IMG/VR virus record: IMGVR_UViG_3300047160_005525
Coordinates: 1-64,000 of that record
Source: a virus
Taxonomy: Duplodnaviria; Caudoviricetes
Strand: one strand, 5' to 3'
DNA: 64,000 nt
Shown: positions 2,587 through 49,830 of the stretch, one piece after another
How positions within the stretch are numbered: the first letter of the stretch is position 1
How the letters are laid out: the number at the start of each line of letters is the position of its first letter
Made by a program: the position numbers and the translations under genes
Notes under the pieces: generated by a model
Told to the model about the DNA's origin: nothing
The model's input: only the letters and a program-made list of their open reading frames with translations
Database searches by the model: none

Positions 2587-2695
2587 GGCCGCCCCCTCCG
2601 GAGAGAGGGCGGCCCCCTGCCATGCCTTGCCCTACCCGGCCAGACCCGACCATGCCGAGCCAGACCTTGCCCTGCCGCAAGACTAAAAGTTTCAC
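2587..2695 (-). ncRNA. GGY/NN pentamer-array cassette A (12 units + hairpin + putative antisense promoter)
   Basis: 12 RCC-NN units at 2619-2678; hairpin GGCCGCCC/GGGCGGCC at 2587-2615; GTGAAA-N4-TAGTCT on - strand at 2680-2695. Confidence 0.75.
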
Positions 2696-3931
2696 ATGAC
2701 TGCAAAGCCGGAAGCAAAAGAATTGGAAGGAAAATGGACGGGTTTCGGTGATTTGCCGCAACTCGATTCAATCATTGCGTATGAATCCACCGATGATGGC
2801 TGGCGTGCTTTAACCGCGAATGGCGAGCTTTTCGAAATCCATGGTCAGGACGGCCGTAGGGCCGAGGTGCCCGATGACAACAATATCCTAGTCGTGCGCG
2901 CGGGCAAAGCGATCGGTCGCCGCGCTATCGAGCAGCGTGGCTTCAAGATCGACGATTACATCACGCATTTCGATCAGGCGGCGGCGCTATTTCGCAGCGG
3001 CAAGACGCAAGAAGCATTGGCTGAAAGCGACGCGGTCATAGCGCTGGCACCGACGCTGCGCGCGCGGTTCAATCGTGCGTTCGTTCTGCTGACGCTGGGT
3101 CAATGGACCGAGGGCTTGGCTGAATACGAGATATGCGAGCGTGACTCGCCGTTCCTGCGGCCGAAGACACGCGAAGCATTGCAAGCTGGCATCAAGCCGT
3201 GGCGCGGCGAAGACCTAACCGGTAAACGATTATTGCTTCTCCATGATCATGGCTTGGGCGATACGATCCAGATGCTGCGTTATGTGCCGGCACTGCAGGT
3301 CATGGGCGCCGATGTAGTGATGATGGTGCCGCCAGAGCTAATGCGGTTGGCCATGCAGGTAGGGACGGTGATAGCCAACACGATGCGGGTCATCGAAGCG
3401 GATTATGTCTGCTCGTTCCTGCATCTGCTGCATTGGCTGCGGGTAATGCCGGGGATGGTGGTTGGCAGTTCATATCTCAAAGTCGATCCGATGCTGCGAC
3501 ACAAGTGGGTCGAGCGGCTCGGTGGCAGCAAGCAGCTGCGCATCGGTCTCGCGTGGTCAGTCGGTGTGATTTATCAGGATGATTATCCGCGCGCGATTCC
3601 ATTCGATGAGCTTTTCGATAGCCTCGATGTCGAGACCGAGCTTTACAGCCTGCAGACGCAATCGCCGCCGGCGTTTTGGGAACAGGGCATCTATAGTTTC
3701 AAGTTCGAAGACTTCGCCGACTGTGCTGCGCTCATGACATGCATGGACAAAATCATCAGCGTCGATACCGCAGCATTGCATCTCGCGGGCGCGATCGGCC
3801 ATCCGCAGGTCTACGGACTGCTCTCGCATTGGCATAGCTGGAGATGGTTGGCAAATTGGTACTCAAACGTCAAACTATGCCGACAGACGACGCCGGGCGA
3901 TTGGAACAGCGCATTGGAGCAGATCAAGTGA
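2696..3931 (+). CDS. TPR + glycosyltransferase (GT9/heptosyltransferase-like) protein
   Basis: TPR helices (ARFNRAFVLLTLGQWTEG), PWRGEDLTGKRLLLLHDHGLGDTIQMLRY, ISVDTAALHLAGAIG. Confidence 0.85.
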   Translation: MTAKPEAKELEGKWTGFGDLPQLDSIIAYESTDDGWRALTANGELFEIHGQDGRRAEVPDDNNILVVRAGKAIGRRAIEQRGFKIDDYITHFDQAAALFRSGKTQEALAESDAVIALAPTLRARFNRAFVLLTLGQWTEGLAEYEICERDSPFLRPKTREALQAGIKPWRGEDLTGKRLLLLHDHGLGDTIQMLRYVPALQVMGADVVMMVPPELMRLAMQVGTVIANTMRVIEADYVCSFLHLLHWLRVMPGMVVGSSYLKVDPMLRHKWVERLGGSKQLRIGLAWSVGVIYQDDYPRAIPFDELFDSLDVETELYSLQTQSPPAFWEQGIYSFKFEDFADCAALMTCMDKIISVDTAALHLAGAIGHPQVYGLLSHWHSWRWLANWYSNVKLCRQTTPGDWNSALEQIK

Positions 3932-4095
3932 CATCACGGCAGTTGCTTGACTTGCTGGATAACGTACTCACGCGCACTCCGCGCGATAAGCTTATCCGCG
4001 ATTGGTGCAAGGCAAGAGACAGCGGCGATATCGATGCATGGGAAGAAATTGAATTAGAGCTTGAGGAATTTGAAGAACGCGAGGATGCATCATGA
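3928..4095 (+). CDS. hypothetical protein
   Basis: GTGA overlap with the upstream stop; acidic C-terminus. Confidence 0.55.
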   Translation: MTSRQLLDLLDNVLTRTPRDKLIRDWCKARDSGDIDAWEEIELELEEFEEREDAS

Positions 4096-4358
4096 GCGAC
4101 CTAGAGGATCGAAGTGGTCAGCCTAAGCGGCTGACGGTTCGTGACTTGATCTCAGCGGCGCAGTCGGGCGATGCGAACACGCGCAAGCAGGCGTTCGCGG
4201 CGTATCTAGCTTGGAAGAAAGCAGCGCCGCAGATTCCTGATGCCAATCGACTCTCACAAATGGAATGCGACCTCTTGAACAAACTTTTTGTCGCAAAAGG
4301 GTTCAATGTCCCTGGCTACAAGCCGCCAGCGCCGCCTCGGCCTCGCCCGGCATACTGA
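4092..4358 (+). CDS. hypothetical protein
   Basis: ATGA overlap; open frame of 88 aa. Confidence 0.6.
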   Translation: MSDLEDRSGQPKRLTVRDLISAAQSGDANTRKQAFAAYLAWKKAAPQIPDANRLSQMECDLLNKLFVAKGFNVPGYKPPAPPRPRPAY

Positions 4359-7300
4359 CTTCATCCCGATCCGACCGCGTGACTGCTGGACGCAATGGCT
4401 CGACGAAATTATCTGGCCAGGGCGAGCGGCGCGCACGGAAAGCTTGCTGCAGCGGTGGGATGAAGACAAGCATCCGCGTGAGCCCGCGGGTAGCTCAGAA
4501 GGCGGGCAGTTCACGTCGGATGGTGGTGGTGAAGAAAGGGAAACGCATTCGTCTGTTCAGGCTGCGGTAGATGCTGCGCCGAAAGATGGCAATCTGGCAA
4601 TCTCTAATGTGAAAGGCACGCTTGATCAGGTGCGAGCACAGGCTAACCAAGCTGTTATCGATACCGGAAACCAGAAAGGAAAAGAATACGAAGTTGGTGC
4701 GGTGATCCACGTTGGTGATGAGTTGAAACATGGAACGGTAAAAGTTGGGATCGTTCACGGTACGAGCGAACAAATTCAGGAAGGTGAGCACGCTGGCAAA
4801 ATTCGGCATCATATCAAGTTTACTCACCTGGCTCCGGTCTTAAAACAATTTGGCGCTCATGAGTTAACGCATAATCATCCCAGTCTCTCTGTTGCGTCGA
4901 TGGGCGACATTGACGCGATGAATCGAACTCCAACAATGGTCTCCTTGCGTGCACATCATAGGGAAGATAGTTCATCGGTAATATCAATTCCGGGGCGAAG
5001 CGCTGATAATTTTCAACAATGGCGCGCGGAATTTAAGGGTCGGGAAGATTTGGGGAGCAATCCCGTACACTTTAAACAGTTTCTTCACGATGCTGGGGTA
5101 GGGATAATGAAGGCGCTGGGGGAGCGATTGTCGCTGGACGATAGAAAAAAGCTAGGAAATTTTGTTTCGGAAATATCCGAAAGATATAAGGATGATCCTG
5201 ACGCTGGTAAGAATTTTTTGTCAGGATATATTTTCCTTTCGGCTCTAGTGAAGGCAGGGATTGTTGAACACAACCATAAGATACCTAAAGAGCTAAAGCC
5301 AATTCTGAATAAATATAACGGATTGCTTTCGAAAGTTTTAAGAATTGGCAATAGCGTTATCGCTGATGCGCGTCGCGAAGATGTTAATCTGACCAAACAC
5401 GAGTGGAAGCCTGAGGAAGACAAGAAGGATTTTGATGAGAACGAATATTCACACTTTGACTGGGGCGACATGGAATGGATGTTTCGTTGGGACGAGTCGC
5501 AACACCCGCGCGAGCCGGGAGGTAGTCCAGAGGGCGGCCAGTTCAGTTCAGGCGGCGGTGGTGCAGGTGCCGAAGGTGGGTTCGAGTTCGTCTCGCCGAA
5601 CGTCTCCAACATTGGACTCGCGGTCGCGCACAATGCGCTTGGCGGAGAACGACAGAGCGCGCTGAAGCAGGCCTCGGGCGAGGTCGATCGGACGCTCGGT
5701 ATCACGAGCGAAGATCACGACATCATCGGCGCATGGAAGGATGGTGCCGAAAACTCGCTGATGTCGGTCTCGAAGGGAACGAGTTGGGATAAGCTCCGCG
5801 TTAGCGGAGCGATGAAGGGATGGCTCGGAGATCAGAAGCAGGTCCTGCTGTTTCGCGATGAGAAGGATGGGCCGGCTACGCTCTACAAGTTCGAATCTCC
5901 GGATGACGTTCAGAAAACTCATGAAAGAATGCTGGCCAATGGGCTTGCATTCCATACGCTGGTCCCGCACAAGGGTGGCACAACGGTTTTAGTCGCGGAT
6001 TTGGATGGATCGCTGCATCATGACACAATCGCAAAAGCCGCTGGCAAATCCCCCGTCGAATATCGGCAGGGAAAAGGCGAGTTCATCGGCACTCAGCAAG
6101 AAACCGGTGACGACCGAGCGCAGCGTGATGACGCGCGAAAAGCCTACGAAAAAATTATCAGACAATCCCCAGTTCAAGGAAGTAACGCAGCCTGGAACCG
6201 GATTCATAATCGGTGGGGTGAAACGCTAACCAAGCCGCATCCGCTCACAGCGGATAGCATCATGATCGAGGCCCCAGCGGTCAAGCGTAATTCGCTCAAA
6301 ATCAAGGACGTCGCCAAACAACTCAATGCCAGAGCAGGACACATCCTGCAGCAGCAGTTCGGCAAACCGTCCATCGAGGAATCCAGTCCGCAGACCGATG
6401 ACTATTTGGCTAGCTCTATCGCGGACGGCCTCAAGGCCGCGTTGACCAACGGCCACGCTTCACCGACATGGTACAGCGACAAGATGAAAGCGGCGATGAA
6501 CATCGCCGAGAGCATGCATCCCGAGATCGCGAAGAATCCCGACAAGCGATTCGGCTATATCGCAGCAATGGCGATTACCAGCCAGGGCGAGACGGTCGAT
6601 AGCAATGTTCGTCTTGCAGAGGAGGCTTACAAACAGTTCAATGAAACTGGAAAATTTCCAACCAATCTGGAAGTGAAGAATTCCGGCATCAATGGCAACA
6701 TGGAGAAGATGAACAAGCTGATCGAACGTTTTGGCGTCAAAGGCACGCATGAGTTCTTCGATAAGGAAATGACGGTGCGTGAACTCAAAGACATGACTGG
6801 TTACAAGGTCGGCCGCAGTTCGATGGATGATGTCGTCAACGGCTCGGCAGTGCTCGGCCCCAAGATCGGACTCGGGTTCTATCAAAACCTCAATGGCAAT
6901 TTCAAACCGTTGACGGCCGACATCTGGTTCATGCGCGCATGGGGGCGCATGACTAACACCGGCATTGGCCAGCCCGATATGAAACCGATTGCCGATCGTT
7001 TGCGCAATGCACTGAAAGAAGAGGGTCGCCCCGCGCCGGCTGATCTGGATAAGCTCGACAAGATTGCGACTGAAGTATTCGACCAGCACGAGCGTGATTT
7101 TGCCAAGCATGGCGACGAATACAAATCCGGCAAGCGCAGCAAGAGCGAATTGGTCTATGCGTCGGAGCGATTTGTCGATAGCTACGGCGGCAAGATGGTG
7201 GAAGCGCCGCGCGGGGCAGAGCATCGGCAATTCATCACCAGTGTATTCAACAAGGCGCTAGACAAGCTCAAGGCACAGGGCATCAATCTTTCGCCTGCAG

Positions 7301-8288: not shown

Positions 8289-10967
8289 ATGCCATTACCC
8301 AAACCGCGTAAAGGGCAGAGTCAATCAGACTTCATGGCCGCCTGCATGCACGAAGCCTTTGGTTCTGACGCGCCGAAGGATCGTACACAACAGCAAGCGA
8401 TTGCAATGTGTATGGGGGCTTGGCGCGAAGCGCATCCATCGGCACCTCCGCCACCGAAGAAAGCCGATGACGACAAAGGCAAAGCCAAGAAACCTTACGG
8501 CGAGGTCGAGTACGCAGACCCTGGATATCAAGAGGACAAAAAGAAAAGATATCCGATCGACACCGAAGCTCACATCAGGGCCGCCTGGAACTATATTAAT
8601 AAGCCGAAGAATGCCGCGAAGTATTCGAGCGAAAATCTGGCAAAGGTTAAAGCCAAAATCGTTGCCGCTTGGAAGAAGGTGATCGACAAAGAGGGGCCGC
8701 CATCGGCTGCGGATAACAAGAAGCAGCAAATCGAACGCGTCATCAGGCGCTGGCATGACAAGTTCGGCCGTGATCCATCGGTGGCAATACTCGCACGTTT
8801 CAGTGCTGACGACATCCCTGAGCCGGATGACGATGAGAGCAAGTCGGATTTTCTTGACCGCTGCCAAGATGAAATCGGCGATGGTGACGATGACGACGAT
8901 GCCGAAGAAGCTTGCGAGCAGGCTTGGGAAGATGCGCAGGATGGCGATGACGAGGACGAAGAGCGGCGCGCGCCCGAGCTTGTACACAAGGCGCACAGCG
9001 GCGAGGTGGATGGCGTCGAGTTTGTGCTCTCGGACGACAGCATAGATCGCATGGGCGATGTAATTGTGAGTGAAGGATGGGACCTAGCTTCGTTCAAGCG
9101 CAATCCCGTCTGTCTCTTCAACCACTCTGCGATGCTGCCGATAGGTAAATGGGAAAATCTTCGCGTCGAAAAGGGTGAGTTGCGCGGTCATCTCCAACTT
9201 GCGCCCGAGGGTACGTCGCCGCGGATCGATGAAATTCGCAGGTTAGTCGATGCCGGCATTCTTCGTGCCGTCAGCGTTGGCTTCCGTCCGCTCGAAAGCG
9301 GTCCGCGACACGAAAACGGAAAAACGCTGGGAATGGTTTTTACGAAATCGGAACTGGTCGAGACATCTCTCGTATCGGTTCCGGCGAATCGCAATGCTCT
9401 CGCGGTTGCGAAGTCATTGCGTATTTCTCCTGCAACGCAGGACCTCGTCTTCGGCGGGAAAGCCTACAAAGACGAGACCACCGTGCGGCGCGGGCTAACT
9501 GGCGGGCATGCCAAAACTGCTCGAAGCGATGGAGGCGGCGTCATGTCGCTCACCCAACGAATCTCCGACTTGCAGACCTTGATGGTCGACAAGCGGGACG
9601 AACTGGAGTCGCACCTGGAAAAACAGGACGACTCGAATATCAGTGATAGTGATCTTGAGAAGACCCAAACGCTCAACGCCGAGATCGCGCAGCTGGAGAA
9701 GCAACACGCTGCGCTGGTCGAGGCGGAGAAGCGGTTGGCGAAGACGGCCGATGGCGGCGGCAATAGTGGTAGTCGCAGCCGGGCGCTGGCGACGACGGCG
9801 TTCACGCAGCCGAAGAACGACGGCGGTGTGACTGCTCCGCTCATCATTCCGAACGCGCGCAAGAAGGACCTCGATCCGATCGATCTGCTCGTGCGAGCGG
9901 GTACGATCAGCTACGTGTCGAAAGTCTGGAATCAGACCACGGAGAATACGCGGCTGAAGATCTATGGCGATGACGAGGGCACAAAGATCGTGTCCGACAT
10001 CATCTTACGCGCGCCATCGGCACCAGCAATGACGAACGTAGTTTCCTGGGCACAGGAACTCGTACAAGTTGTATATTCTGATCTGCTCAACCTGCTGTTA
10101 GCCAAGAGTATCTACACCAGACTTGCAGCGAAGGGGCTTTCGTTGAGCTTCGGCCGTGCGGGCAAGATCAACATTCCTGCTCGCTCGCGTACGCCGACTA
10201 TAGCTGGGAGCTTTGTGGGTGAGGGGCAGGCCATTCCAGTTCGAATGGGCGCTTTTACAACGCAGACTCTCGTTCCGAAGAAAATGGCCGTCATCAGCGT
10301 GTGGTCTCGTGAGATGGACGAGCATAGCATTCCTGCGATTGAAGGCGTGCTACGCGAAGCAGTGCAAGAAGATACCAGCGTCGCGCTCGACAGTGTACTC
10401 ATTGATACGAATGCGGCGACTGCGATCCGGCCGCCTGGTCTGCTCAATGGCGTAACGGCTACAACTGCGACGGCGGGCGGTGGCCTCGACGCGTTGATCG
10501 GTGACATCAAGGCGCTGGTCGGTGCGTTGTCGACGAATACCTATGGCAATGTTCGCAGTCCGGTATGGATCGCAAATCAAGTCGACATGCTGTCGGCTGG
10601 GTTGGCCATGGCGGCGAATACCGGTATCTTCCCGTTCCGTGACGAAGTTGCGGCCGGGCGGCTGGCGAATATACCTATTATCGACAGCGCGACGGTTCCG
10701 GCTAAAACCCTTATCTTGGTTGACGCTGCGGACTTTGTCGCGGTGGGCGGGGAAGCTCCCCGATTCGAGTTAAGCGATCAAGCGACTCTTCATATGGACG
10801 ATTCCGCGCCTGCAGAACTTGTTGGCACGGGCAGTCCTGGAGCGGTTGCTTCACCGCAGCGCTCGCTCTGGCAAACCGACTCGATCGCGCTTCGGATGAT
10901 CATGCCAATGAATTGGTGGCAGCGCCGTCCGGGTACGATTGCCTACACGACCGGAATCACCTGGTAA
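8289..10967 (+). CDS. HK97-type prohead protease - major capsid fusion with N-terminal accessory domains (DUF6582-like)
   Basis: Protease motifs DRMGDVI, LFNHS, LRAVSVGFRP, ELVETSLVSVPAN; C-terminal HK97 capsid; YADPGYQEDKKKRYPIDTEAHIRAAWNYIN recalled as DUF6582-like. Confidence 0.92.
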   Translation: MPLPKPRKGQSQSDFMAACMHEAFGSDAPKDRTQQQAIAMCMGAWREAHPSAPPPPKKADDDKGKAKKPYGEVEYADPGYQEDKKKRYPIDTEAHIRAAWNYINKPKNAAKYSSENLAKVKAKIVAAWKKVIDKEGPPSAADNKKQQIERVIRRWHDKFGRDPSVAILARFSADDIPEPDDDESKSDFLDRCQDEIGDGDDDDDAEEACEQAWEDAQDGDDEDEERRAPELVHKAHSGEVDGVEFVLSDDSIDRMGDVIVSEGWDLASFKRNPVCLFNHSAMLPIGKWENLRVEKGELRGHLQLAPEGTSPRIDEIRRLVDAGILRAVSVGFRPLESGPRHENGKTLGMVFTKSELVETSLVSVPANRNALAVAKSLRISPATQDLVFGGKAYKDETTVRRGLTGGHAKTARSDGGGVMSLTQRISDLQTLMVDKRDELESHLEKQDDSNISDSDLEKTQTLNAEIAQLEKQHAALVEAEKRLAKTADGGGNSGSRSRALATTAFTQPKNDGGVTAPLIIPNARKKDLDPIDLLVRAGTISYVSKVWNQTTENTRLKIYGDDEGTKIVSDIILRAPSAPAMTNVVSWAQELVQVVYSDLLNLLLAKSIYTRLAAKGLSLSFGRAGKINIPARSRTPTIAGSFVGEGQAIPVRMGAFTTQTLVPKKMAVISVWSREMDEHSIPAIEGVLREAVQEDTSVALDSVLIDTNAATAIRPPGLLNGVTATTATAGGGLDALIGDIKALVGALSTNTYGNVRSPVWIANQVDMLSAGLAMAANTGIFPFRDEVAAGRLANIPIIDSATVPAKTLILVDAADFVAVGGEAPRFELSDQATLHMDDSAPAELVGTGSPGAVASPQRSLWQTDSIALRMIMPMNWWQRRPGTIAYTTGITW

Positions 10968-11244: not shown

Positions 11245-11303
11245 CGGAGTCTCTGTTCGCTCCCGTCAGTGCCCAAACACCGGCCAGAGGCTCCGCTTTT
11301 TTT
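11245..11303 (+). terminator. intrinsic terminator after capsid operon
   Basis: CGGAGTCTCTG/CAGAGGCTCCG stem followed by T7; the loop is long. Confidence 0.5.
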
Positions 11304-11324
11304 CCTGTTTAGAAGTTATGACGA

Positions 11325-12773
11325 ATGGCAGCACGCGCGCTTTTGGCTCGTGGTTTGCGAACGGTCGCCCGTGCGATTGAAGGACAGTATCGACCAGGAC
11401 CCTATAATCTTCCGATAACCGGCGGCTGGTTGCCCGATGGGGCGCCGATCAATTGGTGGCAAACGGGCATGATCCCGGTCACTGGTTATCGTAATGCCAT
11501 GGTCGAAGCATGCGTTTCCGCATATTCGCAAACAACTGCAATGCTCCCCGGCGATCACTGGAGAACGAACACTAAGGGCGGGCGCGAGCGGGTCAAGAAC
11601 AGTGCGTTGTCACGCATACTGCGCCATCCGAATGCATACCAGAGCATCTCCGATTTCATGCTCAACGCGACACGGCAACTTTATTTGGACGGCAATGCTT
11701 ATGCACTCGCGCTGCGCAACGATAGGTTCGAGGTTACTGAACTTCATCTGATGGACAGCCGGGTTTCCCGCCCGGAGCTTGCTGTCGACGGTTCGGTTTT
11801 TTACCAACTCGCTGGCAACATGGTGATCCAGCAGCAGGTCGGAGACAGTGCTCGGTTGATGGTGCCACAGCGTGACGTGCTGCATATTCGATTGCATGCA
11901 GATCGGCGCTGGCCTTATCCGATCTTCGGCGAGTCACCGTTGCTCGCGGCGTTGGGCGACATCGAGACAGGCTCGGCGATCACCGATCAGCAAATCCAAT
12001 TCTATCGCAATCAGGCGCGACCGAGCGCGGTGCTGTCGACCGACTTGCAACTCGACAAAGATCAAGTGCAGTTTCTACGTGACCGCTGGGACGAGCAGGC
12101 GCGCGGGCTTAATCAAGGTAAGACGCCGATCTTGACTGCGGGCTTGAAGGTGCAGCCATGGACGGTGGGCGGGCGCGACGCGCAGATCGCGGAGATGCTG
12201 AAGATCAGCGAATCGCACATTGCGCTGGTGTATCGCATTCCATTGCCTTTGCTTGGATTGACAAGCGGATCAGCCGGCGGCACGGAAGCACTCATACAAT
12301 TATGGCTGGCCTCAGGGCTCGGTTTTTGTCTCAATCATATCGAGGAATCTTTTGGCTTACTCTTTCAGCTTAAAGGTCAGCCCGATGAGTATTGCGAGTT
12401 TGATACGTCTGCCCTTTTACGCTCGCTGTTCAAAGATAGGATTGAAGGCTTAACCCGCGCAGTACAAGGCGGTGTTTATAGTCCTAATGAAGCCAGGGCG
12501 GAAGAAGGTTTAGAGAAAACACCCTATGGCGACGAGCCGCGTGTTCAGCAACAGGTCGTGCCACTTTCTGCCGCCGCAGGAATCCCGCACGCGCCGGGGC
12601 CGCACGCACCGCCGAGCGCGGCTGGACAACCGGCACCAGGTGCTCCGCAGCCAAAGCCGCCGACAGCGGAAACGCCAACAGCGGTAAAGGATCATCGCGA
12701 TGACATACGACGAGAAGCACAACGGCTCCACGCCGTCGTCAGTCGGATCGGAAGAAACCGATCTGTTAACTGA
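11325..12773 (+). CDS. HK97-family portal protein
   Basis: LRHPNAYQSISDF, LYLDGNAYA, VLHIRL, FYRNQARPSAVL, GVYSPNEARAEEGL. Confidence 0.93.
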   Translation: MAARALLARGLRTVARAIEGQYRPGPYNLPITGGWLPDGAPINWWQTGMIPVTGYRNAMVEACVSAYSQTTAMLPGDHWRTNTKGGRERVKNSALSRILRHPNAYQSISDFMLNATRQLYLDGNAYALALRNDRFEVTELHLMDSRVSRPELAVDGSVFYQLAGNMVIQQQVGDSARLMVPQRDVLHIRLHADRRWPYPIFGESPLLAALGDIETGSAITDQQIQFYRNQARPSAVLSTDLQLDKDQVQFLRDRWDEQARGLNQGKTPILTAGLKVQPWTVGGRDAQIAEMLKISESHIALVYRIPLPLLGLTSGSAGGTEALIQLWLASGLGFCLNHIEESFGLLFQLKGQPDEYCEFDTSALLRSLFKDRIEGLTRAVQGGVYSPNEARAEEGLEKTPYGDEPRVQQQVVPLSAAAGIPHAPGPHAPPSAAGQPAPGAPQPKPPTAETPTAVKDHRDDIRREAQRLHAVVSRIGRNRSVN

Positions 12774-14445
12774 AGTTACGCGCGAGGTTCTTGGCGAAGT
12801 CATTGTACAAGAGCGCGAGAAAGCGCAGCGCGACTGGCAACGCGACCGCGAATTGATAACAGCGCAAGCTGAGGAGGCAATTGCCCGTGCTGAATCCAAA
12901 GCGGAAACGGCAATCGCTCGTGCTGATGCTAGAGCAGAAACAGCCATCGCTCGCGCTGATGCCGTAGCGGAGGCGACCGCGCGTGAGGCTGCCGAGATGC
13001 GCGCGCAGATGAGCGAGATGCGCTCGGAGATCGAGCGGATGATGTCGATCCGCTTGGCCGAGCTTCGTGATGGAGCGGTCGGGCCGAAAGGAGAAAAGGG
13101 CGATCAGGGTCTGATGGGGCCGCAGGGGGAACGCGGTGTCGCTGTCATGGGCGAAACGGGGCCGCCAGGACTGAAGGGCGAGCCTGGAATCGCTGGCCGC
13201 GACGGCCGCGACGGCGCTCCGGGGCCAGCAGGGCCGCAGGGCGAACGCGGAAGCGATGGCATCAGCATTAAAGGTCCGATTGGTCCCGAGGGTCCTCCAG
13301 GGCGCGACGGTGCTCAAGGCCCTCCTGGAGAGAGCATCGTAGGTCCGCAAGGTGAGCGGGGATTACCAGGTGAAGCGATTGTTGGGCCGCAGGGTGAACC
13401 GGGTTTGAAGGGTGATAAGGGCGACGTAGGCGAGCGCGGTTTGCCTGGAGAAGCGATTGTAGGGCCGCAAGGTGAGCAAGGCGTTGCTGGCGTACAGGGT
13501 GAACGCGGTGAAGCAGGAGAGAAAGGCGATGTCGGCGAGCGAGGTATCCAAGGCGAAGCCGGGCCGTCCGGCTCGGCCGGTCCAAAGGGCGATCCAGGAG
13601 AGCGCGGCGAGCAAGGCCCGCAAGGTGAGGTCGGACCCATTGGTGCCAAAGGCGACGTCGGAGAAAAAGGCAATGCCGGTGATCCCGGTGTGCCAGGAAT
13701 ACGAGGAGAAAAAGGAGAAAGAGGCGAGCGAGGACTGGACGGAGCAATTGGCTCTCAGGGTGTGCCTGGAAGCGTGGGAGAACGCGGAGAAAAAGGGATT
13801 GACGGCGCCCGCGGCGAAAGGGGCGAGCGCGGCGAGCAGGGAGCGCGCGGCGAGAAAGGCGATCAGGGCATTCCTGGTGGAGTTGGACCTGCTGGTCAAC
13901 GAGGTGAACGCGGCGAGCGCGGCGAGCAAGGTTCGCCTGGTAAATTGACGATCTGCAAAGTCTGGCAGAAGGACGAGATCGTCTACGAATCTCAATTGCG
14001 CACGCACGAAGGTTCGTTATGGCAGGCGCTGAAAGATACAGCGCAGCTTCCCGGTCACGCTGATTGGATTTGTCTCGCCACGGCTGGCATCGATGGCGCT
14101 GGCATCAACCCGTGCGGGCTCTATCAGGAAAATCATGTGTACCGTCGTCTCGACTTGGTCACTGTCAACGGGTCAACCTTCGTTGCTAAGCGCGATGCTC
14201 CTGGCATATGCCCCGGCGAGCATTGGCAGCTTACTGCTAGCCAAGGCAAACGTGGTATTGCCGGCGAAAAGGGCGAGCGTGGTCCGATTGGGCCAAAGGG
14301 TGAAGCCGGTCAAGCCGCTCCGCGCATTACAGGCTTCCGTCTTGATCCGAAAAATTATCGTGCCGTTGCACGAATGTCTGATGGCTCAGAACTGCCGCTA
14401 GAACTGCGCGAACTATTCGAGCAGTTCAATGATGAGACTCGATGA
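12700..14445 (+). CDS. collagen-like head-associated protein
   Basis: N-terminal coiled coil, long Gly-X-Y tract, C-terminal W-rich modules (VWQKDEIVY...GSLWQALKDT). Confidence 0.85.
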   Translation: MTYDEKHNGSTPSSVGSEETDLLTEVTREVLGEVIVQEREKAQRDWQRDRELITAQAEEAIARAESKAETAIARADARAETAIARADAVAEATAREAAEMRAQMSEMRSEIERMMSIRLAELRDGAVGPKGEKGDQGLMGPQGERGVAVMGETGPPGLKGEPGIAGRDGRDGAPGPAGPQGERGSDGISIKGPIGPEGPPGRDGAQGPPGESIVGPQGERGLPGEAIVGPQGEPGLKGDKGDVGERGLPGEAIVGPQGEQGVAGVQGERGEAGEKGDVGERGIQGEAGPSGSAGPKGDPGERGEQGPQGEVGPIGAKGDVGEKGNAGDPGVPGIRGEKGERGERGLDGAIGSQGVPGSVGERGEKGIDGARGERGERGEQGARGEKGDQGIPGGVGPAGQRGERGERGEQGSPGKLTICKVWQKDEIVYESQLRTHEGSLWQALKDTAQLPGHADWICLATAGIDGAGINPCGLYQENHVYRRLDLVTVNGSTFVAKRDAPGICPGEHWQLTASQGKRGIAGEKGERGPIGPKGEAGQAAPRITGFRLDPKNYRAVARMSDGSELPLELRELFEQFNDETR

Positions 14446-14447
14446 AA

Positions 14448-14571
14448 GAGGGCCGACTCTTCGGATGAAAAGTCAGCCCTCACCTCGCCATGCCTTGCCT
14501 AGCCTCGCCGTGCCTCGCCCTGCCTGGCCAAGCCTGGCCTCGCCAAGACCATGTTAGTCTAGCATTTTCAC
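14448..14571 (-). ncRNA. GGY/NN pentamer-array cassette B (13 units)
   Basis: Hairpin 14448-14481; RCC-NN units 14482-14546; GTGAAA-N4-TAGACT on - strand at 14556-14571; NN code matches 14416-14445. Confidence 0.8.
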
Positions 14572-14590
14572 TTGTTAAAGGAAGCTTCTC

Positions 14591-15241
14591 GTGGCCGATA
14601 TGAGTGTCACAAATACTGTTGTCGCGGCGACAATGCACGATTTGGTGACGCTGGCTGAAGCTAAGCAATATCTTGGGATGAATCTGACTGATACGACTGA
14701 GGACGCTCAGCTTCAGCTTTTTATCACTACAAATTCTCACATCATTGCTCGTGAGTGCGATCGCATTTTTGCGAAAGAGACGATCGAGGAAACATGGCGC
14801 GAGGTTTACGACGGCCGCGTGTTTTTGATGCATTGGCCGGTAGTCAAGACAGATATCACAAGCGTCGTCGCCGCTGGCACTGGTGTAACGATCGATGAAT
14901 ACGAATTAGAGGAATCTTCAGGCAAGCTTTCATACGTGAAGGTGAACGATCCGGCATCAGCGCCATGGCCGCAAAGCGTGATCATCAATTACACCGGCGG
15001 CTACAATCTTCCAGACGAAGCGCCGTATCCGCTGAAGCATGCTTGCATCTTGATGGTCCGCGAAGATCAGATACGGCAGCGACAAGCCCAGACCGCAGGC
15101 ATTCGGCAAATCTCGCATCACGAGGCGCGTGTTTCGTTCTTCGATCCTAATGCGCTCTTGATACGAACTGCTGGCATGGGTTCGCCGGCGATGCAGACGG
15201 TCGCGAAGATTCTCTACAAGTACACGCGGAACTGGGTGTGA
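14591..15241 (+). CDS. head-tail connector (HK97 gp6-like adaptor)
   Basis: LVTLAEAKQYLG, YTGGYNLPDEAPYPLKHACILMV; position after the portal. Confidence 0.8.
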   Translation: MADMSVTNTVVAATMHDLVTLAEAKQYLGMNLTDTTEDAQLQLFITTNSHIIARECDRIFAKETIEETWREVYDGRVFLMHWPVVKTDITSVVAAGTGVTIDEYELEESSGKLSYVKVNDPASAPWPQSVIINYTGGYNLPDEAPYPLKHACILMVREDQIRQRQAQTAGIRQISHHEARVSFFDPNALLIRTAGMGSPAMQTVAKILYKYTRNWV

Positions 15242-17937: not shown

Positions 17938-20031
17938 ATGCCTATCTCTTTCGCAAACATTCCATCTAATATTAAGGTCCCTTTATATTGGGTGGAAGTG
18001 GATAACGCGAATCAAGCGTAGGTCCCTTTGTCGAGCAATCGACATCGAACATCGGGTGAACTCGGGGAAACTCCAGATCGGACAATCCCGAGCCAAGCTG
18101 CCGCAACGGCAGAAGGTGTAACGACTAGAGCGCAAGCTCGTAGGATCAAGCGATCCGAAGCGCCCGACGCCCCAAGTGGGCGGTGATATAGTCTCCTCCA
18201 CATAGGAATATGTGGCAGTCCGCAAAAGGACGGTAGCGAGAGTAGCGAACTCGCTGCGAAGATTAGGCCCTCAATGGCAGGTTTGCCGACGCTCAATCTG
18301 CGAGCGTTGCTGATCGGCACGATGAATGCTGACGGCACTGGCACTCAAGACATCCCGGTTGCCATAGGCACGCAAGCATCAGCCGACGAGAAGTTCGGCG
18401 TAGGCTCTGAACTCGCGCAGATGTTCAAAGCCTACTTTAAAAATAATTTTGCCAATGAGGTGTGGGCGGGGCCCGTGGCTCCGTCTACTAACTCGCAAGC
18501 AGCAAGTGGCACGATCACGGTGACGACGCCGCCGAGCGAGGCCGGAACGATCAATCTCTACATCGCCGGTCATCATGTGGCGGTCAACGTCGGCATGAGT
18601 GATACGGCTGAGCAGGTTGCGCTTGAAATCGCTAACGCGATTAATGCAATCGAACCCGCTTTGCCGGTGACAGCGGCAGCAGGGACCGGAGCGACAACTA
18701 CGGGAACTGGCACCGGCAATTCGACGGGCACGACCAGTCTGACCGTCTCGTCGTCAACCGGTACCATCGCGATCGGCGCGACCGTGACTGGCACCGGCGT
18801 TCCTGCCAACACGACGATTGCGAGTCAGACCTCGGGCACGATCGGCGGCGATGGCGTGTACGTCACCAGTAACCCGACGACGCTGTCGGCGGCAGCGATC
18901 ACGACCACGCTGACCAGCAATACGAACGTGGTCACGGTGACTTGCACCTTCCTGGGCGTCAACGGCAACGAGATTCGCATCGAGCAGGACTACTACGGAA
19001 TGCTCGGCGGCGAACGGCCGGTGACGGGGCTGGTGCTGACGTTGCCGGCGACAAACTTCTTGACCGGCGGTGTCGGCACGCCGGACTTTACCAACTTGAT
19101 CATAGCCATGGGCGAGACGCCGTTTGAGTATCTCTGCGTGCCTTACTGGGATTCCAACACCTTGCTCGCGTTTGAGGAGGAGATGGGATTCGGAGATTCG
19201 GGTCGCTGGGGATGGCAGCGTCAGCTGTTCGGCCATGTGTTCCTTGCCAAGCGCGGTCAATACTCGGACCTCGTCACCTGGGGCTTGACCCGCAACAGCG
19301 GATTGATCTCGGTGCTGGCGTTCGAGAATCCCACGCCGACGCCGATGTACGAGATGGCGGCGGCTTACACGGCGAAGGCGCAGCGCGCGCTCAGCAACGA
19401 CCCGGCCAGGCCGCTGCAGACCTTGCAACTCAACGGCACGCTGCCGGCGAAGCTGCACGATCGCTTCAACTTCGTCGAACTCAACTCCCTCGCCTCAAGC
19501 GGCCTTGCCATCCAGAAGTGTTGGGAAGGCTCGGGCATGTCGCAAATCGCCCGCGAGCAAACAACCTACCAACTTAATCTTTATGGCCAGGGCGATGACG
19601 CGTACGAACTCGTCACGACGCTCGCGACGTTGGCGAAGATTCTCCGCAATCAACGTCACGCGATCACGAGCAAGTATCCCAGACACAAACTTGCGAATGA
19701 CGGAACACGCTTCGGGCCAGGGCAGGCGATTGTGACCCCGGCTATTATCAAAGCCGAATTAGTCGCACAATACCGGATGGATATGTGGGACGGCCTCGTC
19801 GAGGACGTCGCCGACTTCAAGCGCTTCCTCCTGGTGGAAAGGGACCCGGATAACCCTAATAGGTTAAACGTGCTTTATCCGCCTGACTTGATAAATCAGC
19901 TGCGAATCTTCGCCGTGCTCGCACAATTTAGACTCCAGTACGATCGTGGGATCGATGTTGCCATTATCGGCTATACGGGACTCGCAGGAATCGCTGGACC
20001 TGGTGGTGCCTTAACTGGTACTGGTGGCTAA
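17938..20031 (+). CDS. contractile tail sheath (Mu gpL-like), interrupted by a group I intron at 18004-18267
   Basis: Exon 1 MPISFANIPSNIKVPLYWVEVD + exon 2 PSMAGLPTL...; sheath motifs YTAKAQRALSNDPARPLQTL, VERDPDNPNRLNVLYPPDLINQLRIFA. Confidence 0.92.
18004..18267 (+). mobile_element. ORF-less group I intron (264 nt)
   Basis: U at 5' splice site pairs with IGS GGUCC; P3 TCGGGTG/CGCCCGA; P4 CTCGGG/CCCGAG; P7 GACTA/TAGTC; P9 CCACATA-GGAA-TATGTGG; terminal G; in-frame TAG removed by splicing. Confidence 0.9.
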
Positions 20032-21182: not shown

Positions 21183-21914
21183 TCAAGTCTTACGCGACTT
21201 GCGGATGGCATGCATAAGCAATCGGGCTTGCCGGTTTCTCTCTCGTTGCTTGAGTCGTTCGTGCCGCTTGGTGATCGTGTTCTGGTGAGAATCCAGCTTC
21301 GCTTGGACTGCCTCATCAGGAGAACGCTTATCTCGCTCAGCGATAGCCTTTCGGTGAGATTCCAACTTTGCTCGCACTCTTTCGTCAGGTGATGGATCGA
21401 GTTTTGCGTATGGTCCAAAGTACTCTTCGGCTGCGATGCAGTAAGCGGTGTGAGCGTCTTCTACCGTGAAATAGACACCAAGACTAATGCTCCGTCCGTT
21501 GACTTTGATCCGGGCTACGTATCGTTGAATGCCTTTGTGCCAGGTGACTCCTTTTGGAAGAGTCTTTCCTTCGATTAGCTTACGATTTCTAGCTTGTTCT
21601 GTATCATTTCCCGGACGAAGATTTGACCAACGGTTATCGCTGGGGTCGCCGTTCTTATGATCTACTTCGGGTTTGTCCCAAGCTTCGGTCTTTCCTGGCC
21701 AGTCGCCGGTCATATAGAGAACGGCCAAGCGGCTAGCCTGATAGAGTTTACCGTCGATCTTGATTTCTAGACGCCCGTCTTTCTTAGGCGTGCCTGCAAC
21801 GCTACCCACGAGGACGCGGCCGTTCGGCTGTATGCGCCAGGTGAAGACGCCGGTGTCAGGATCGTAGTTGAGGATTTCGTCGAGACGAGCTTGCGTTAAG
21901 ATGTCATCAGCCAT
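21183..21914 (-). mobile_element. HNH-AP2 homing endonuclease
   Basis: LDEILNYDPDTGVFTW, VDHKNGDPSDNRWSNLR, AP2-like GVTWHK..RYVARIKVNG..LGVY. Confidence 0.88.
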
Positions 21915-22011
21915 TGGCGATGCTCCTACATCGTTGGTGGTTAGGGACTCGCGGGTGAGTGACACCATCCGTGAGTCCCGCTCAGACTATCACAAGGCAA
22001 TGAGGTGAACC

Positions 22012-22480: not shown

Positions 22481-22666
22481 TTGTTTGAGGATGTCAACGC
22501 CGACGAAGTGATTTTGAACTGCTATCGGCTAGCGGATCGTTTCCATCAAAATCCGGAAGTGTTTCTTGACATGGGGCTAAGCCGTGTCAATTGGCACATC
22601 CATTTTACCATCAAGTTGATTGAGGCGCAGAACAAGGCGCGCGCGGTGCAGAGTGATGAAGATTGA
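22481..22666 (+). CDS. second chaperone segment (GpE'/GT-like; TTG start or frameshift product)
   Basis: Short ORF ILNCYRLADRFHQNPEVFL between the chaperone and the tape measure. Confidence 0.6.
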   Translation: MFEDVNADEVILNCYRLADRFHQNPEVFLDMGLSRVNWHIHFTIKLIEAQNKARAVQSDED

Positions 22667-46005: not shown

Positions 46006-46197
46006 ATGCGTAAGCTTTTAGACGAAGCCTTGAATGACGCCTTCAAAGTGCAGTTCAATAACTTGTTCAATGTTCTTTGCGCAGCCCCAGATCATGATCC
46101 GGCAATTCAACGATTTCATCGCGGTTTAAAAAGGGCCGTTGAGATGCGCCGTCATGCCACGAGGGTTATCGAGCACATGCTTGAGGAAACCAAATGA
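46006..46197 (+). CDS. hypothetical protein
   Basis: Coupled to the endolysin; resembles the C-terminal half of the upstream gene. Confidence 0.55.
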   Translation: MRKLLDEALNDAFKVQFNNLFNVLCAAPDHDPAIQRFHRGLKRAVEMRRHATRVIEHMLEETK

Positions 46198-47798
46198 TCA
46201 TCGCGCTGAGTTCAGGCCATGCTCGTGATTGCCCAGGCGCTTCGGACATCATCGATGAGGTCACGGAGGCGCGACGCGTGGTCGAGCGTACAGCGCAATA
46301 TCTTCGCACCGCTGGCATCGATGTCCGCGTTTTCCATGACAACGAATCGACATCTCAGGACGAGAATCTAGACGCCATCATTGACTGGACGAATGCCCAA
46401 GATGCCGATCTCGCGGTCTCGATTCATTTCAATTCGAACGGGACCACGTCTCAGCCGGTCGGTACTGAATGTTGGTACAAGACGCAACGAGAGTTAGCGG
46501 CTGACGTCGCTGCCGAGATTGCTATATCTTCAGGGCTTATCGATCGAGGCGGCAAACAGACCGATTCTTTGGCATTTTTGAATGGGACCGAAGCTCCAGC
46601 GATCTTGGTAGAGGTCTGTTTCGTAAATTCACAGGCGGACTGCACAACCTATCGACAGAAATTCGATGACGTTTGTCGCGCTCTCGCCGGTGCGATATCG
46701 AGCGAGACAATCCCGCCGAGCGAGCCGGGTGAACGTGCCCCGCGTCCTGAATGGCCGCAATTCCCCGAAGCGCCAGAGGGACCACCATGGGACAGCAGAC
46801 CTGAAGAAGTTCCGATCGAGGATCGACCGACACTACGGCGCGGCGATGAAGGCCCTCATGTGCTCGACATGCAGCGCATGATCCCGCGGTTCACCGGTGA
46901 CTTCGACGGCGACTTTGGACCGACGACGGAAGACAATGTTCTGCGCTATCAGGACTCGCGCGGGCTCGATGCTGATGGCATCTGCGGGCCGATTATGTGG
47001 GAGGCGCTGTACACGCACAAGCTTCCTGTGCCGCCTCCGCCGGCTCCGCCTGGTGCGCTTACGCCCGAGCAGCAGGTCGTGATCATGCGGCTCGCGAACG
47101 ATTCTGCGATTGCTGATTACTATTGGCAGGATCGTGGTATTGCGCCAAACGGTTGGATCACTGGCATGGCATTGGCGTTCGGGCAAACTTACAAGAAATG
47201 GAAGGTTGGTCATCCGGCTGCACTCGAGATGGCGAAAGCGCGCATGGACACCGACAAGGACGTGCTCAATCTCTATCGCGATGAGTTCGAGCAGCTTGGT
47301 ATGCCAAATGAAGATGATGGGGCTGATACGTTGCGGCATCTCTTTGCCCTTCTTATCGGGCACGGCATGAGAGAGAGTTCGGGCGCCTACTGCGAAGGTC
47401 GAGACATGAGCGCCGACAATGTCGAAAGCGATACGGCTGAAGCTGGCGCCTTCCAGACTTCATACAACGCGCACACCGCGAGCGATCCGGAATTCGACAA
47501 CCTGATGGATGAATATCTGCACGGTCTATCGCCGGGTTATGAAGATGCTTTCTCGGAGGGCGTATCATGTTCGTCGGACGATTGGGAAAATTACGGCAGT
47601 CCAGAAGAGCGTGGCTATCAATTTCAGCGGCTGAGCAAAGACGCACCTGCGATGGCTGCCGAGCACTGCGCACTTACCTCACGAAATCTCGCGAATCATT
47701 ACGGGCCTTATCTGCGTCACGAGACCGAACTCAAGGAGGACGCAGATAACATGCTTGAGGCTGTGGCGGCTTATCTTGACGAAACCGAGCAAGCATGA
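46194..47798 (+). CDS. endolysin: N-acetylmuramoyl-L-alanine amidase (Amidase_3) + peptidoglycan-binding domain + C-terminal domain
   Basis: SSGH..DEVTE, VSIHFNS, ILVEVCFVNS; DGDFGPTTEDNVLRYQDSRGLDADGICG. Confidence 0.92.
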   Translation: MIIALSSGHARDCPGASDIIDEVTEARRVVERTAQYLRTAGIDVRVFHDNESTSQDENLDAIIDWTNAQDADLAVSIHFNSNGTTSQPVGTECWYKTQRELAADVAAEIAISSGLIDRGGKQTDSLAFLNGTEAPAILVEVCFVNSQADCTTYRQKFDDVCRALAGAISSETIPPSEPGERAPRPEWPQFPEAPEGPPWDSRPEEVPIEDRPTLRRGDEGPHVLDMQRMIPRFTGDFDGDFGPTTEDNVLRYQDSRGLDADGICGPIMWEALYTHKLPVPPPPAPPGALTPEQQVVIMRLANDSAIADYYWQDRGIAPNGWITGMALAFGQTYKKWKVGHPAALEMAKARMDTDKDVLNLYRDEFEQLGMPNEDDGADTLRHLFALLIGHGMRESSGAYCEGRDMSADNVESDTAEAGAFQTSYNAHTASDPEFDNLMDEYLHGLSPGYEDAFSEGVSCSSDDWENYGSPEERGYQFQRLSKDAPAMAAEHCALTSRNLANHYGPYLRHETELKEDADNMLEAVAAYLDETEQA

Positions 47799-47911
47799 GA
47801 AACGGCCGCCCATTTTGTGACGACCGTTTCTCCCCTGCCATGCCTTACCGGGCCATGCCGCGCCCCGCCAGACCGGACCTTGCCACGCCCAACCGGGCCA
47901 TGCCGCGCCCT
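47797..47911 (-). ncRNA. GGY/NN pentamer-array cassette C (15 units)
   Basis: Hairpin 47797-47832; units 47837-47911; NN code matches the endolysin at 47136-47174. Confidence 0.82.
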
Positions 47912-48334: not shown

Positions 48335-48724
48335 ATGGCTCGCATACCGGCTCATCTGATTCGTCGTCTAAAACAAGAGGAGAGATGCATGAGCTATACG
48401 CTTCCAAGCGGGATGCAAGTTACTTGCCAAATTTCTTACGTTGATGCCGCGGGCAATCCCGCTGTCGTTGATGGTGATGTGGCGTGGTCATCGAGCGATG
48501 AAACTAAGCTCGTCGTCTTTGTCAACTCACAGGATTCGACAAAGGTCGTCCTGCGAACTGTCGGGCCAGTCGGCCTCGTTCAAGTCAAAGCAACGGCTGA
48601 TGCTGATTTAGGCGCGGGCGTTCGCGAACTTGTCACTACCGCCGATGTCGACATTATCGCCGGTGAGGCAGTTGCCGGCATGATTTCACCAATCGGTCCC
48701 GCCGAGCCAATCCCCGCGGCATAA
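48335..48724 (+). CDS. Ig-like beta-sandwich protein
   Basis: YVDAAGNPAVVDGDVAWSSSD..VQVKATADADLG. Confidence 0.65.
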   Translation: MARIPAHLIRRLKQEERCMSYTLPSGMQVTCQISYVDAAGNPAVVDGDVAWSSSDETKLVVFVNSQDSTKVVLRTVGPVGLVQVKATADADLGAGVRELVTTADVDIIAGEAVAGMISPIGPAEPIPAA

Positions 48725-48726
48725 AT

Positions 48727-48833
48727 GAGAGCGAGAGCTTTCGCTCCCGCTCTCCCCTACCTTGCCTCGCCGGGCCGTACCATACCATTCCTTGCCCGAC
48801 CACACCCCGCCGCGCCCCACCAGACCTCGCCGC
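48727..48833 (-). ncRNA. GGY/NN pentamer-array cassette D (15 units)
   Basis: Hairpin 48727-48754; units 48759-48833 (one TCC variant); NN code matches 48602-48640. Confidence 0.82.
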
Positions 48834-48850
48834 GGTTAATCTCTAGTATC

Positions 48851-48937: not shown

Positions 48938-48939
48938 TC

Positions 48940-49131
48940 ATGGCCGATGATCAGGGTTATGCAGCGACGCTTGAGGGTTTCGTTGCGCGCTTTGATGATC
49001 TCGCCATCAAATTGCGCGAGGCCGCAAACGCGCAGGACTATGATGAGGTCTCCGATCTGGTCGACGAGCTTCTCGAAGATCTCGAACGAGCGGCCGACTT
49101 CATCAAGAAAAAACGCGAGGAGCGGGGATAA
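48940..49131 (+). CDS. small helical hypothetical protein
   Basis: Last + strand ORF before the terminator. Confidence 0.6.
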   Translation: MADDQGYAATLEGFVARFDDLAIKLREAANAQDYDEVSDLVDELLEDLERAADFIKKKREERG

Positions 49132-49228
49132 TTCTGGGGATGTTTTGCGATTTGCTATTTCACAGGAGCGTGGATGCGATAGACTGATTCTGTAGCGTTG
49201 AGTCCTGTTCGTTACACTCGTCTAACTG

Positions 49229-49269
49229 AACCCGGTCGAGCTTGAAGTGGAGGCTCGGCCGGGTTTTTT
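49229..49269 (+). terminator. intrinsic terminator ending the late region
   Basis: AACCCGGTCGAGC/GCTCGGCCGGGTT stem + T tract at the convergent boundary. Confidence 0.8.
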
Positions 49270-49392
49270 ATTTAATCCTCGGTGGGGAGTAGATCGCCGA
49301 TTTCATCATCGGGATCGGGTGCGGCTGAAGGATTAAGCTGATCGAGCAGCTTACGTAACGCGCGGGCCGGTGACACTGCTTGACTTAATAAT

Positions 49393-49500
49393 GAGAGCGA
49401 GAGCTTTTGGCCCTCGCTCTCCCTTGCCTCGCCGCGCCGCGCCAAGCCTTGCCGTGCCTGGCCTAGCCACGCCCTACCCCGCCTAGCCGCGCCCCGCCAC
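49393..49500 (-). ncRNA. GGY/NN pentamer-array cassette E (15 units)
   Basis: Hairpin 49393-49421, nearly identical to that of D; units 49426-49500; NN code matches 49600-49635. Confidence 0.8.
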
Positions 49501-49515
49501 ATTAAAAATAAAATC

Positions 49516-49830
49516 TCATCGCTCTTTCCCCAGCCATCGATAAGCTTGATGCCGCAAACTACGTGGCACAGCACGCGCTTCGACGCGAATATATGAGCTT
49601 GTGGCTTTAGAAGGCAATCGATACCAAACGAGTTTACTCGATTTCCAGGTTCGGTGAGCAACGTAGACTTGGCCATTGCGCGGTCGGCTGACGAAGAGAC
49701 CGTGTAAAGCATGGCGAGAAGTGCGGGGAAGCGCAGCTGGTGGGGCTGTGTGTGCTACGCTCCCCCTGGCCGGCATCACGGGGGGCTGTTGCAATGCCGG
49801 GTCCAAATTGTAGTCGTTAGAGAAGTCCAT
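49516..49830 (-). CDS. hypothetical protein (its homolog is the apparent target of cassette E)
   Basis: ATG start; codon-register match with the cassette E code. Confidence 0.55.
   Translation of the reverse strand: MDFSNDYNLDPALQQPPVMPARGSVAHTAPPAALPRTSRHALHGLFVSRPRNGQVYVAHRTWKSSKLVWYRLPSKATSSYIRVEARAVPRSLRHQAYRWLGKER

Follow-up and report, generated by a model that had tools for sequence, protein, structure and literature searches.

Five short intergenic cassettes, here called A to E in order of position, are dispersed through the first 64,000 nucleotides (positions 1 to 64,000, hereafter the window) of a virus contig of 76,776 bp in IMG/VR (record IMGVR_UViG_3300047160_005525; Duplodnaviria, Caudoviricetes). 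We propose, with a probability of roughly 0.8, that they are solo genes for guide RNAs of a VIPR system from the SUSP1/P. fulva (type II-like) lineage, residing in a temperate myovirus. VIPR has been described in three 2026 preprints (bioRxiv 10.64898/2026.04.26.720920, 10.64898/2026.04.26.720927 and 10.64898/2026.10.15.759431): its guide RNAs, the vrRNAs, consist of 9-16 GGY/NN units and a structured 3' tail, bind the small RAMP protein Vipr and read double-stranded DNA of either strand, each unit skipping a single base that is mostly the wobble base, and natural targets were called at an NN match of at least 80%. A phage system in which GGY/NN RNAs read gapped targets had been invoked when the cassettes were first noticed in the window; it exists, and it fits them.

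On the + strand all five cassettes show the same order of a GC-rich hairpin, a CCCYT pentamer, 12-15 units of 5 bp (RCC-NN) and an AT-richer flank; read from the - strand, this is (NN-GGY)n followed by AGGGR and the hairpin. Since the + strand of the whole 76.8-kb genome is free of GGY-NN runs, all elements have one orientation. Both the sequence and a whole-genome motif scan confirmed the five cassettes, their positions and their common design as originally described. Each of them consists of tandem 5-nt units with a constant GGY and a hypervariable NN, as vrRNAs do by definition (at least four such units, 9-16 in those published). A sixth solo (F) and a tandem vrRNA array lie in the remainder of the contig.

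Guides B, C and D match alleles of relatives better than those of their carrier

An exact gapped-pattern search of IMG/VR with guide D (13 guide units) gave 26/26 matches in two contigs, at positions 8610-8647 of L002 and 1733-1770 of L003. Both sites lie in frame in homologs (62-66% amino-acid identity) of the gene next to cassette D (48335-48724), where they encode the peptide ADLGAGVRNIITP, and only two units of D, belonging to the conserved handle described below, mismatch. Neither contig contains a vrRNA run, and thus the perfect matches of D fall, as the original prediction had anticipated, in homologs of the adjacent gene on contigs lacking such a cassette. The same pattern had no match in GTDB genomes, and tblastn with the D gene gave no match.

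The exact pattern of guide C found nothing in IMG/VR. Since exact gapped searches allow no mismatch, near-targets are invisible to them, and the target of C was found by fetching whole related contigs: at 11281-11318 of a relative, G001, it matches 24/26 positions in the endolysin (GVAPTGFTQGMA), a protein 61% identical to the endolysin of the phage. Guide B matches 18/20 positions at the stop-codon end of a collagen-like gene in L110, at 3958-3986 (FEQFHSETK*), just downstream of which no vrRNA run is present, and 17/20 in several other relatives, at loci around portal homologs. In all three cases the foreign allele is matched better than that of the carrier (D, 100% vs. 81%; C, 92% vs. 77%; B, 90% vs. 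70%), the foreign targets keep the codon register, the skipped base falling on the wobble position, and the published 80% level for natural targets is reached, which, in the sequences searched, is not so for A, E and F. When shuffled guides were scored against the same 1.9 Mb of relatives, their maxima were 22 for D, 21 for C and 18 for B; the foreign scores of D and C were never reached and that of B once in 100 trials. Where guides and own genes differ, the amino-acid changes are conservative (E to N, L to I, V to I), which is the signature of a homologous allele and not of a decayed self-guide.

Solos of relatives behave similarly. The portal-side solo of G001 matches its own gene at 18/24 positions, L097 at 24/24 and L114 at 23/24, and the solos of G004 and G002, located at orthologous sites, each match the other's allele better than their own. 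The portal gene of the phage studied here matches the guide of this G001 solo at 20/24 positions (83%; 11409-11443, + strand); judging from this alignment, guides carried by relatives may come close to targeting the phage in turn.

Matches to the neighboring gene

The genome of the phage was scanned on both strands with the published scoring, i.e., identity over the informative positions with a 1-nt skip. Guide C has its genome-best match at 47136-47173 (+) within the endolysin gene 46194-47798 (GIAPNGWITGMA; 20/26, or 20/30 at 47130-47173 if untrimmed), and guide D at 48602-48639 (+) within gene 48335-48724, which encodes 129 amino acids (ADLGAGVRELVTT; 21/26, untrimmed 23/30 at 48602-48645). 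Guide B matches the end codons and stop of the collagen-like gene 12700-14445 (FEQFNDETR*) at 14416-14444 (+), with 14/20 over 10 guide units and 18/26 bases at 14416-14453 when untrimmed. Guide F has its genome-best match, 23/32, in the phage's own exonuclease gene. The weakest of the matched cassettes is E, which scores 16/24 at 49601-49635 (-) in the open reading frame (ORF) 49516-49830 (KLVWYRLPSKAT; guide-decoded K[LF]VWYTLPYAPT); this match is joint-best in the genome with three units trimmed and ties with 10 other sites with two units trimmed. As conceptual translations, the guides of both E and F decode to peptides that are clearly homologous to their neighbors, that of F being AYVIQT[IM]HE[IM][IM]L[KN]. 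The skipped base is codon position 3 at the own sites of B, C, D and F, the four that were checked. Of the codon-register matches that had been predicted for four cassettes, those of B, C and D were therefore reproduced together with their register, and that of E as a match.

The guide-neighbor matches exceed chance. For C, D and F, a distance of 120-660 bp separates the cassette from the single best match in the 76.8-kb genome, and for B this match is within 1 kb once two conserved tail-proximal units are dropped, so that the genome-best match falls within 1 kb in four of six solos (P = 5.6e-6 for at least four by position alone). Among solos on six contigs read whole (n = 18), 7.6 best own-contig matches were within 1 kb against 0.63 expected (P = 1.4e-6), and among the non-redundant solos of the family (n = 61) there were 23.2 against 9.8 expected (P about 5e-6). 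The effect is not seen with clustered array guides (n = 135; 26.2 against 19.3 expected, P 0.06). The array guides of this phage likewise have no bias of the genome-best match to their neighborhood, and none of them (G1-G9) has an own or external target above shuffled level.

A genome-best match to the adjacent gene, as in B, C, D and F, is also what one would see if the cassettes silenced or timed their own neighbors (endolysin, virion proteins, exonuclease) through partial matches, for example by keeping late genes off in the lysogen. The own match of D, at the published cut-off, could be read in the same way, as could two solos on other phage contigs (L054 4221-4275 and L062 2854-2908) with 16/18 self matches within 1 kb, which from their sequences are possibly genuinely self-targeting or autoregulatory. 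However, wherever a foreign allele was found it matched better than the own one, which disfavors self-regulation, and the guide-own differences are of the conservative kind expected for a homologous allele. Moreover, published surveys found no self-targets of 80% or more; in this phage the own best matches are 62-77% for A, B, C, E and F, and 81% for D. We therefore regard self-regulation as very improbable, and retain the interpretation of the cassettes as guides against alleles of relatives.

The vrRNA family and its Vipr protein

A pattern built from the 3' handle of the phage's vrRNAs retrieved 69 IMG/VR loci with 303 repeat runs, 208 of them distinct; an exact array-linker pattern, stricter than this handle pattern, was absent from IMG/VR and GTDB genomes. 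Of the 208 distinct runs, 111 have AGGGA as the pentamer following the last unit and 127 have AAGGC or GAGGC as that unit. The Y of GGY is C in 2302 units and T in 252. Throughout the family, the hairpin-proximal units (AAGGC/ATGGC/GAGGC in the RNA) thus form a conserved 3' handle in front of AGGGR. These units are not guide, which explains why they fail to match targets; that they are mostly non-matching and recur between cassettes had been noted from the window, and the family as a whole bears out this observation.

With repeats masked, a protein of about 205 amino acids was found directly beside the arrays in 48 of the 69 loci. The SUSP1 VIPR locus could be located in GenBank KT454805, with the vipr gene at 28474-29061 and GGY/NN runs on both flanks, and a profile of the 48 family proteins matches the experimentally characterized SUSP1 Vipr over its full length (E = 1e-70). 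The RNAs of the window therefore belong to the guide family of a type II-like Vipr, and the partner protein that the original prediction expected to co-occur with such arrays across genomes is indeed there. On these sequence comparisons, the 69 handle loci, 48 with Vipr, extend type II-like VIPR to phages of soil Alphaproteobacteria.

It is against this family that the notion of non-functional repeat debris or chance periodicity has to be judged. Cassette A, which has no target, would suit it. But exact units extend over 60-75 bp in five places and one orientation, the handle is common to 208 runs, most of which adjoin Vipr genes, and one guide finds a gapped match of 26/26 within a homolog of the gene next to it; together, the foreign match of D, the link to the Vipr profile and the shuffled-guide controls effectively refute it.

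In three IMG/VR loci a vrRNA run is directly followed by a tRNA-like T-arm and acceptor (GGTTCGAnTCC...; L012 ~10010-10070, L044 ~2140-2205, L073 ~4856-4915). The arrangement suggests vrRNA-tRNA-like fusions, which could be processed by tRNA enzymes.

Source of the effector and points against the proposal

The original prediction further called for a RAMP/Cas7-like protein elsewhere in the genome, and here it failed: the family profile found no Vipr among the six-frame ORFs of at least 30 amino acids of the 76.8-kb contig (best E 0.15-0.35). The same profile recognizes the Viprs of the relatives G002, G003 and G004 at 1e-67 to 1e-75, the gene of G002 being located at 17979-18719. Searches of the contig with SUSP1 Vipr and Vap1 by phmmer gave no match either, and the locus of a VIPR system, as defined by its Vipr (a minimal RAMP), is not present on it. 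Array-adjacent and other ORFs (about 45, scanned with Pfam and PHROGs) were rejected as Vipr candidates, yielding only DGQHR/ParB-like, methyltransferase-like and ParB_N-DUF5131 proteins. Two array-adjacent proteins had no sequence match in the PDB, and their motifs point to ParB-like and Rossmann-type folds; the array-adjacent protein P0001 had no relatives in IMG/VR.

This absence, on a contig that CheckV rates as 100% complete, weighs against our proposal, and so do several other observations. The targets of C and B are near-perfect and not perfect, guide A has no match in its neighboring gene in the whole-genome scan, and the own allele of D lies, at 81%, at the published cut-off for a self-target even though it is assumed to escape self-silencing. 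The exact gapped patterns of the remaining guides were without match (A in IMG/VR, E in metagenomes, F in IMG/VR and JGI metagenomes), and none of the three has an external target above shuffled level in the 1.9 Mb of relatives. The idea that every cassette encodes a relative's diverged allele of the neighboring gene thus holds for B, C and D, and no such allele was found for A and E. Finally, a suitably placed sigma-70-like promoter was seen at cassette B only, and the cassette hairpins lack canonical U-tracts.

The missing effector raises the possibility that the RNAs load onto the Vipr of a co-infecting or resident VIPR-positive phage and turn it, as guns for hire, against the late genes of that rival. 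This differs from our proposal only in the source of the effector, and we consider it a serious possibility, although not the favored one. It agrees with the CheckV rating, with the relatives G007 (76 kb, CheckV 100%, three dispersed solos) and G001 (56 kb), which carry solos and no Vipr by profile, and with published solos of satellites and VIPR-null SUSP1-like phages that exploit the Vipr of another element. Yet the contig is linear, without terminal repeats, and ends inside a 9-unit array, and in the relatives L063, L064 and L066 a vipr gene is located immediately upstream of a 10-unit array; this layout makes it plausible that vipr lies just beyond the contig end. Also, three Pfam models for terminase had no match on the contig, which makes its completeness uncertain and hints at missing sequence, and no large tandem array lacking vipr has been reported so far. 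Vipr would either be encoded just beyond the contig end, which falls inside the main array, or be supplied by another VIPR-positive element in the cell. As there is no Vipr on the contig, and B to E are located 27-62 kb from its end and more than 14 kb from its start, these cassettes agree with the definition of solo vrRNAs (Lopez et al.). Cassette A is only 2.6 kb from the contig start, and its status as a solo therefore depends on sequence beyond the ends.

Architecture of the cassettes and the array

All cassettes are encoded on the - strand. Cassette A (2587-2695; fold -28.1 kcal/mol) comprises a hairpin (2587-2614), the boundary AGGGG (2614-2618), 12 NNGGY units (2619-2678) and a 5' flank up to 2695, directly followed by the ATG of the next gene at 2696. 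Cassette B (14448-14590), with the collagen-like gene (stop codon at 14445) on one side and the head-tail adaptor gene (start at 14591) on the other, has its hairpin at 14448-14481 and 13 units at 14482-14546, with the promoter-like site in the 5' flank (- strand, 14578 to 14551). Cassette C (47797-47911; -24.3 kcal/mol), whose hairpin (47797-47832) overlaps the endolysin stop codon, continues with AGGGG (47832-47836) and 15 units (47837-47911). Cassette D (48727-48833; -24.4 kcal/mol) is built of a hairpin (48727-48754), AGGGG (48754-48758) and 15 units (48759-48833), one of them off-consensus (TCCTT, 48789-48793). The hairpin of cassette E (49393-49500; -23.0 kcal/mol) occupies 49393-49421 and has a base nearly identical to that of D; it is followed by the boundary AAGGG (49421-49425) and 15 units (49426-49500).

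Solo F is located outside the window, at 71357-71441 of the genome (repeat motif at 71362-71441; L001 9357-9441), in the same orientation, and its AGGGA lies 4 nt before the ATG of a YqaJ-type exonuclease gene. The tandem array, also outside the window and in the same orientation (75993-76776 of the genome; L001 13993-14776), holds at least nine vrRNAs and runs off the contig end; genes for a ParB/DGQHR-like (399 amino acids), a methyltransferase-like (265 amino acids) and a ParB_N-DUF5131 protein adjoin it. Nothing but an AU-rich linker (about 14-19 nt) stands between one of its guides and the next, and both these guides and solo F are devoid of a hairpin, ending in AGGGA and the AU-rich linker.

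Cassettes A to E have strong hairpins of 12-15 bp (-23 to -28 kcal/mol) whose sequences vary from cassette to cassette; including relatives, solo hairpins range from -23 to -38 kcal/mol, in some relatives with a U-rich tract behind them. By their structure and position, the hairpins of dispersed solos are probably terminators and 3' caps, which a guide would need when encoded within an operon in antisense. All five cassettes thus possess the structured 3' tail of vrRNAs in a variant form of handle plus hairpin, with tail sequences that are unrelated to the SUSP1 pseudoknot and differ from one cassette to the next. Rfam contains no family for the cassette RNAs.

Insertion at gene junctions and a possible mode of action

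Comparison with relatives indicates that the cassettes at the junctions of A and B are insertions. G007 likewise carries a cassette at the junction of A, and in L132 and L108, which have none there, the stop and start codons overlap at this junction. In relatives without cassette B the stop of the collagen-like gene is a few bases from the next start, compared to about 145 bp here. For D, the gene itself is in a different place: it follows the lysis genes in this phage, while its homolog (L002 8340-8726; also L003) follows a methyltransferase homolog and, in L002, stands just downstream of a capsid-protease gene. The gene and the guide may have moved together as a unit.

In our proposal, transcription of the cassettes would run along the - strand, in antisense to the late genes, and yield RNAs of about 100 nt with 10-13 variable NN-GGY guide units, a conserved handle of 2-3 units (RAGGY ... 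AGGGR) and a strong hairpin, which probably ends the transcript and caps the RNA. Following the published mechanism, Vipr protomers would polymerize along the RNA, hold each GGY and present each NN pair, and the filament would bind double-stranded DNA matching NN-x-NN-x... and repress transcription there. During mixed infection, or in the presence of a resident prophage, the guide would silence the rival's copy of the endolysin, the collagen-like virion protein or the 129-amino-acid protein, and the linked own copy would escape. The own copies of the genes targeted by B, C and D are 35-660 bp from the cassette and match at 70-81%, those of relatives at 90-100%. Being neighbors, guide and resistant copy would be inherited together in recombinants. 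It should be noted that we infer the self-immune status of the own alleles only from their lower match to the guides (62-81%).

One step further, the solo cassettes could be selfish two-part modules of a guide and an adjacent resistant allele, an RNA-guided counterpart of marker exclusion by homing endonucleases. For a silenced rival, the only way out would then be recombination that brings in the resistant allele and with it the guide, and an R-loop or triplex at the target might stimulate such recombination. Modules of this kind would also explain the clean junction insertions within tens of bases of the site that is read. We put this forward tentatively and with more doubt than confidence.

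The proximity of guide and target might also have another cause, if guides were templated from, or inserted beside, the neighboring DNA and their similarity to it did not stem from selection for linkage. Many targets are indeed only 35-120 bp from the cassette (B, D and E; solos of G001, G004 and G007), and clean insertions at gene junctions are what such a local origin or homing would leave behind. Arguing in the other direction, the cassettes have no linked integrase, reverse transcriptase or nuclease, the matches of C and F are 450-660 bp away, and a self-templated guide would begin as a perfect self-target. The different genomic context of the D gene with its cassette and of the targeted homologs fits co-transfer and homing equally well. 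On balance, a local origin seems improbable, and the linkage of a guide to a mismatched allele of its target remains our preferred description.

Genomic context of the phage

The phage is a temperate myovirus by its gene content, with soil Alphaproteobacteria as hosts. Pfam and PHROGs scans identified portal, protease-capsid fusion, tail sheath, baseplate J, endolysin and integrase genes, and the closest prophage portals are those of Bradyrhizobium, Pseudolabrys and other Alphaproteobacteria; megablast of the phage against GenBank phages gave no match.

The tail region contains further features. Rfam has a single match in the window, to the full model of the group I catalytic intron (RF00028, 65.2 bits), at 17958-18215 (+), just upstream of the tail-sheath ORF 18274-20031, and from this position the tail-sheath gene or its upstream neighbor may be intron-split. 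Antisense within the tail-gene block, ORF 21183-21968 (-) combines HNH_3 and AP2 domains of the homing-endonuclease type and represents another selfish element in this genome. It is followed by two very long neighboring ORFs, 22663-26988 and 26995-31041 (+), encoding 1441 and 1348 amino acids.

Relation to known systems and significance

Free-standing homing endonucleases of T-even phages such as SegF and SegG cause marker exclusion, in which the sensitive allele is cut by the nuclease and repaired by copying in the determinant together with flanking markers, so that the progeny contain an excess of the determinant and its flanking allele. The likeness to the cassettes is a functional analogy only: these, too, would be selfish determinants beside a resistant allele that attack the sensitive allele of a co-infecting relative, but here the determinant would be an RNA guide for a DNA-binding silencer and no nuclease is linked to it. 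Archaeal viruses carry mini-CRISPR arrays in interviral conflict, which are effector-less and whose spacers match close relatives and not the virus itself. They resemble the cassettes as guide genes relying on an effector encoded elsewhere, but they use contiguous spacers with CRISPR repeats that do not stand beside the self allele, in place of the gapped GGY/NN code.

The closest counterpart is type II VIPR of Escherichia phage SUSP1 and a Pseudomonas fulva prophage (10.64898/2026.04.26.720920, 10.64898/2026.04.26.720927), which has the same 9-16 GGY/NN units with a structured 3' end, the same one-base skip at the wobble position on either strand and the same targeting of genes of competing phages, and of whose SUSP1 Vipr the Vipr of the present family is a clear homolog. 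In contrast, the five RNAs described here are away from vipr, scattered in the late-gene region in antisense, with a private simple hairpin instead of the conserved SUSP1 pseudoknot tail, on a contig without vipr. Solos without a nearby Vipr are likewise known from F5 satellites and VIPR-null SUSP1-like phages (10.64898/2026.10.15.759431); some of them, like the cassettes, target homologous loci of relatives (vipr, vrRNAs) and score lower on the own copy, by which autoimmunity is avoided. Those solos are, however, not dispersed but occupy either the place where vipr formerly stood or a single conserved region of satellites, and they target vipr, vrRNAs, satellites and host REP decoys, whereas structural, lysis and probably recombination genes are targeted here. 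Unlike them, each solo of this phage is linked to its carrier's mismatched allele of the targeted gene; among the published candidates, no vipr- or satellite-class target region was covered by the carrier's own homology (10.64898/2026.10.15.759431).

VIPR itself, its skip code, the wobble alignment, inter-phage targeting and solo vrRNAs are therefore already published. What is apparently new with respect to the VIPR preprints is the dispersal among essential genes of the late region, the private hairpin tail, structural and lysis targets in close relatives and the position of a guide beside the carrier's own mismatched allele. The natural pairs of sensitive and resistant alleles, such as that of L002 and positions 48602-48639 of the window, could be used for measuring how many mismatches VIPR tolerates. 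Should the linkage prove adaptive, it would offer a simple view of temperate phages, closely related to one another, fighting at the level of single alleles, and an RNA-guided analog of marker exclusion.

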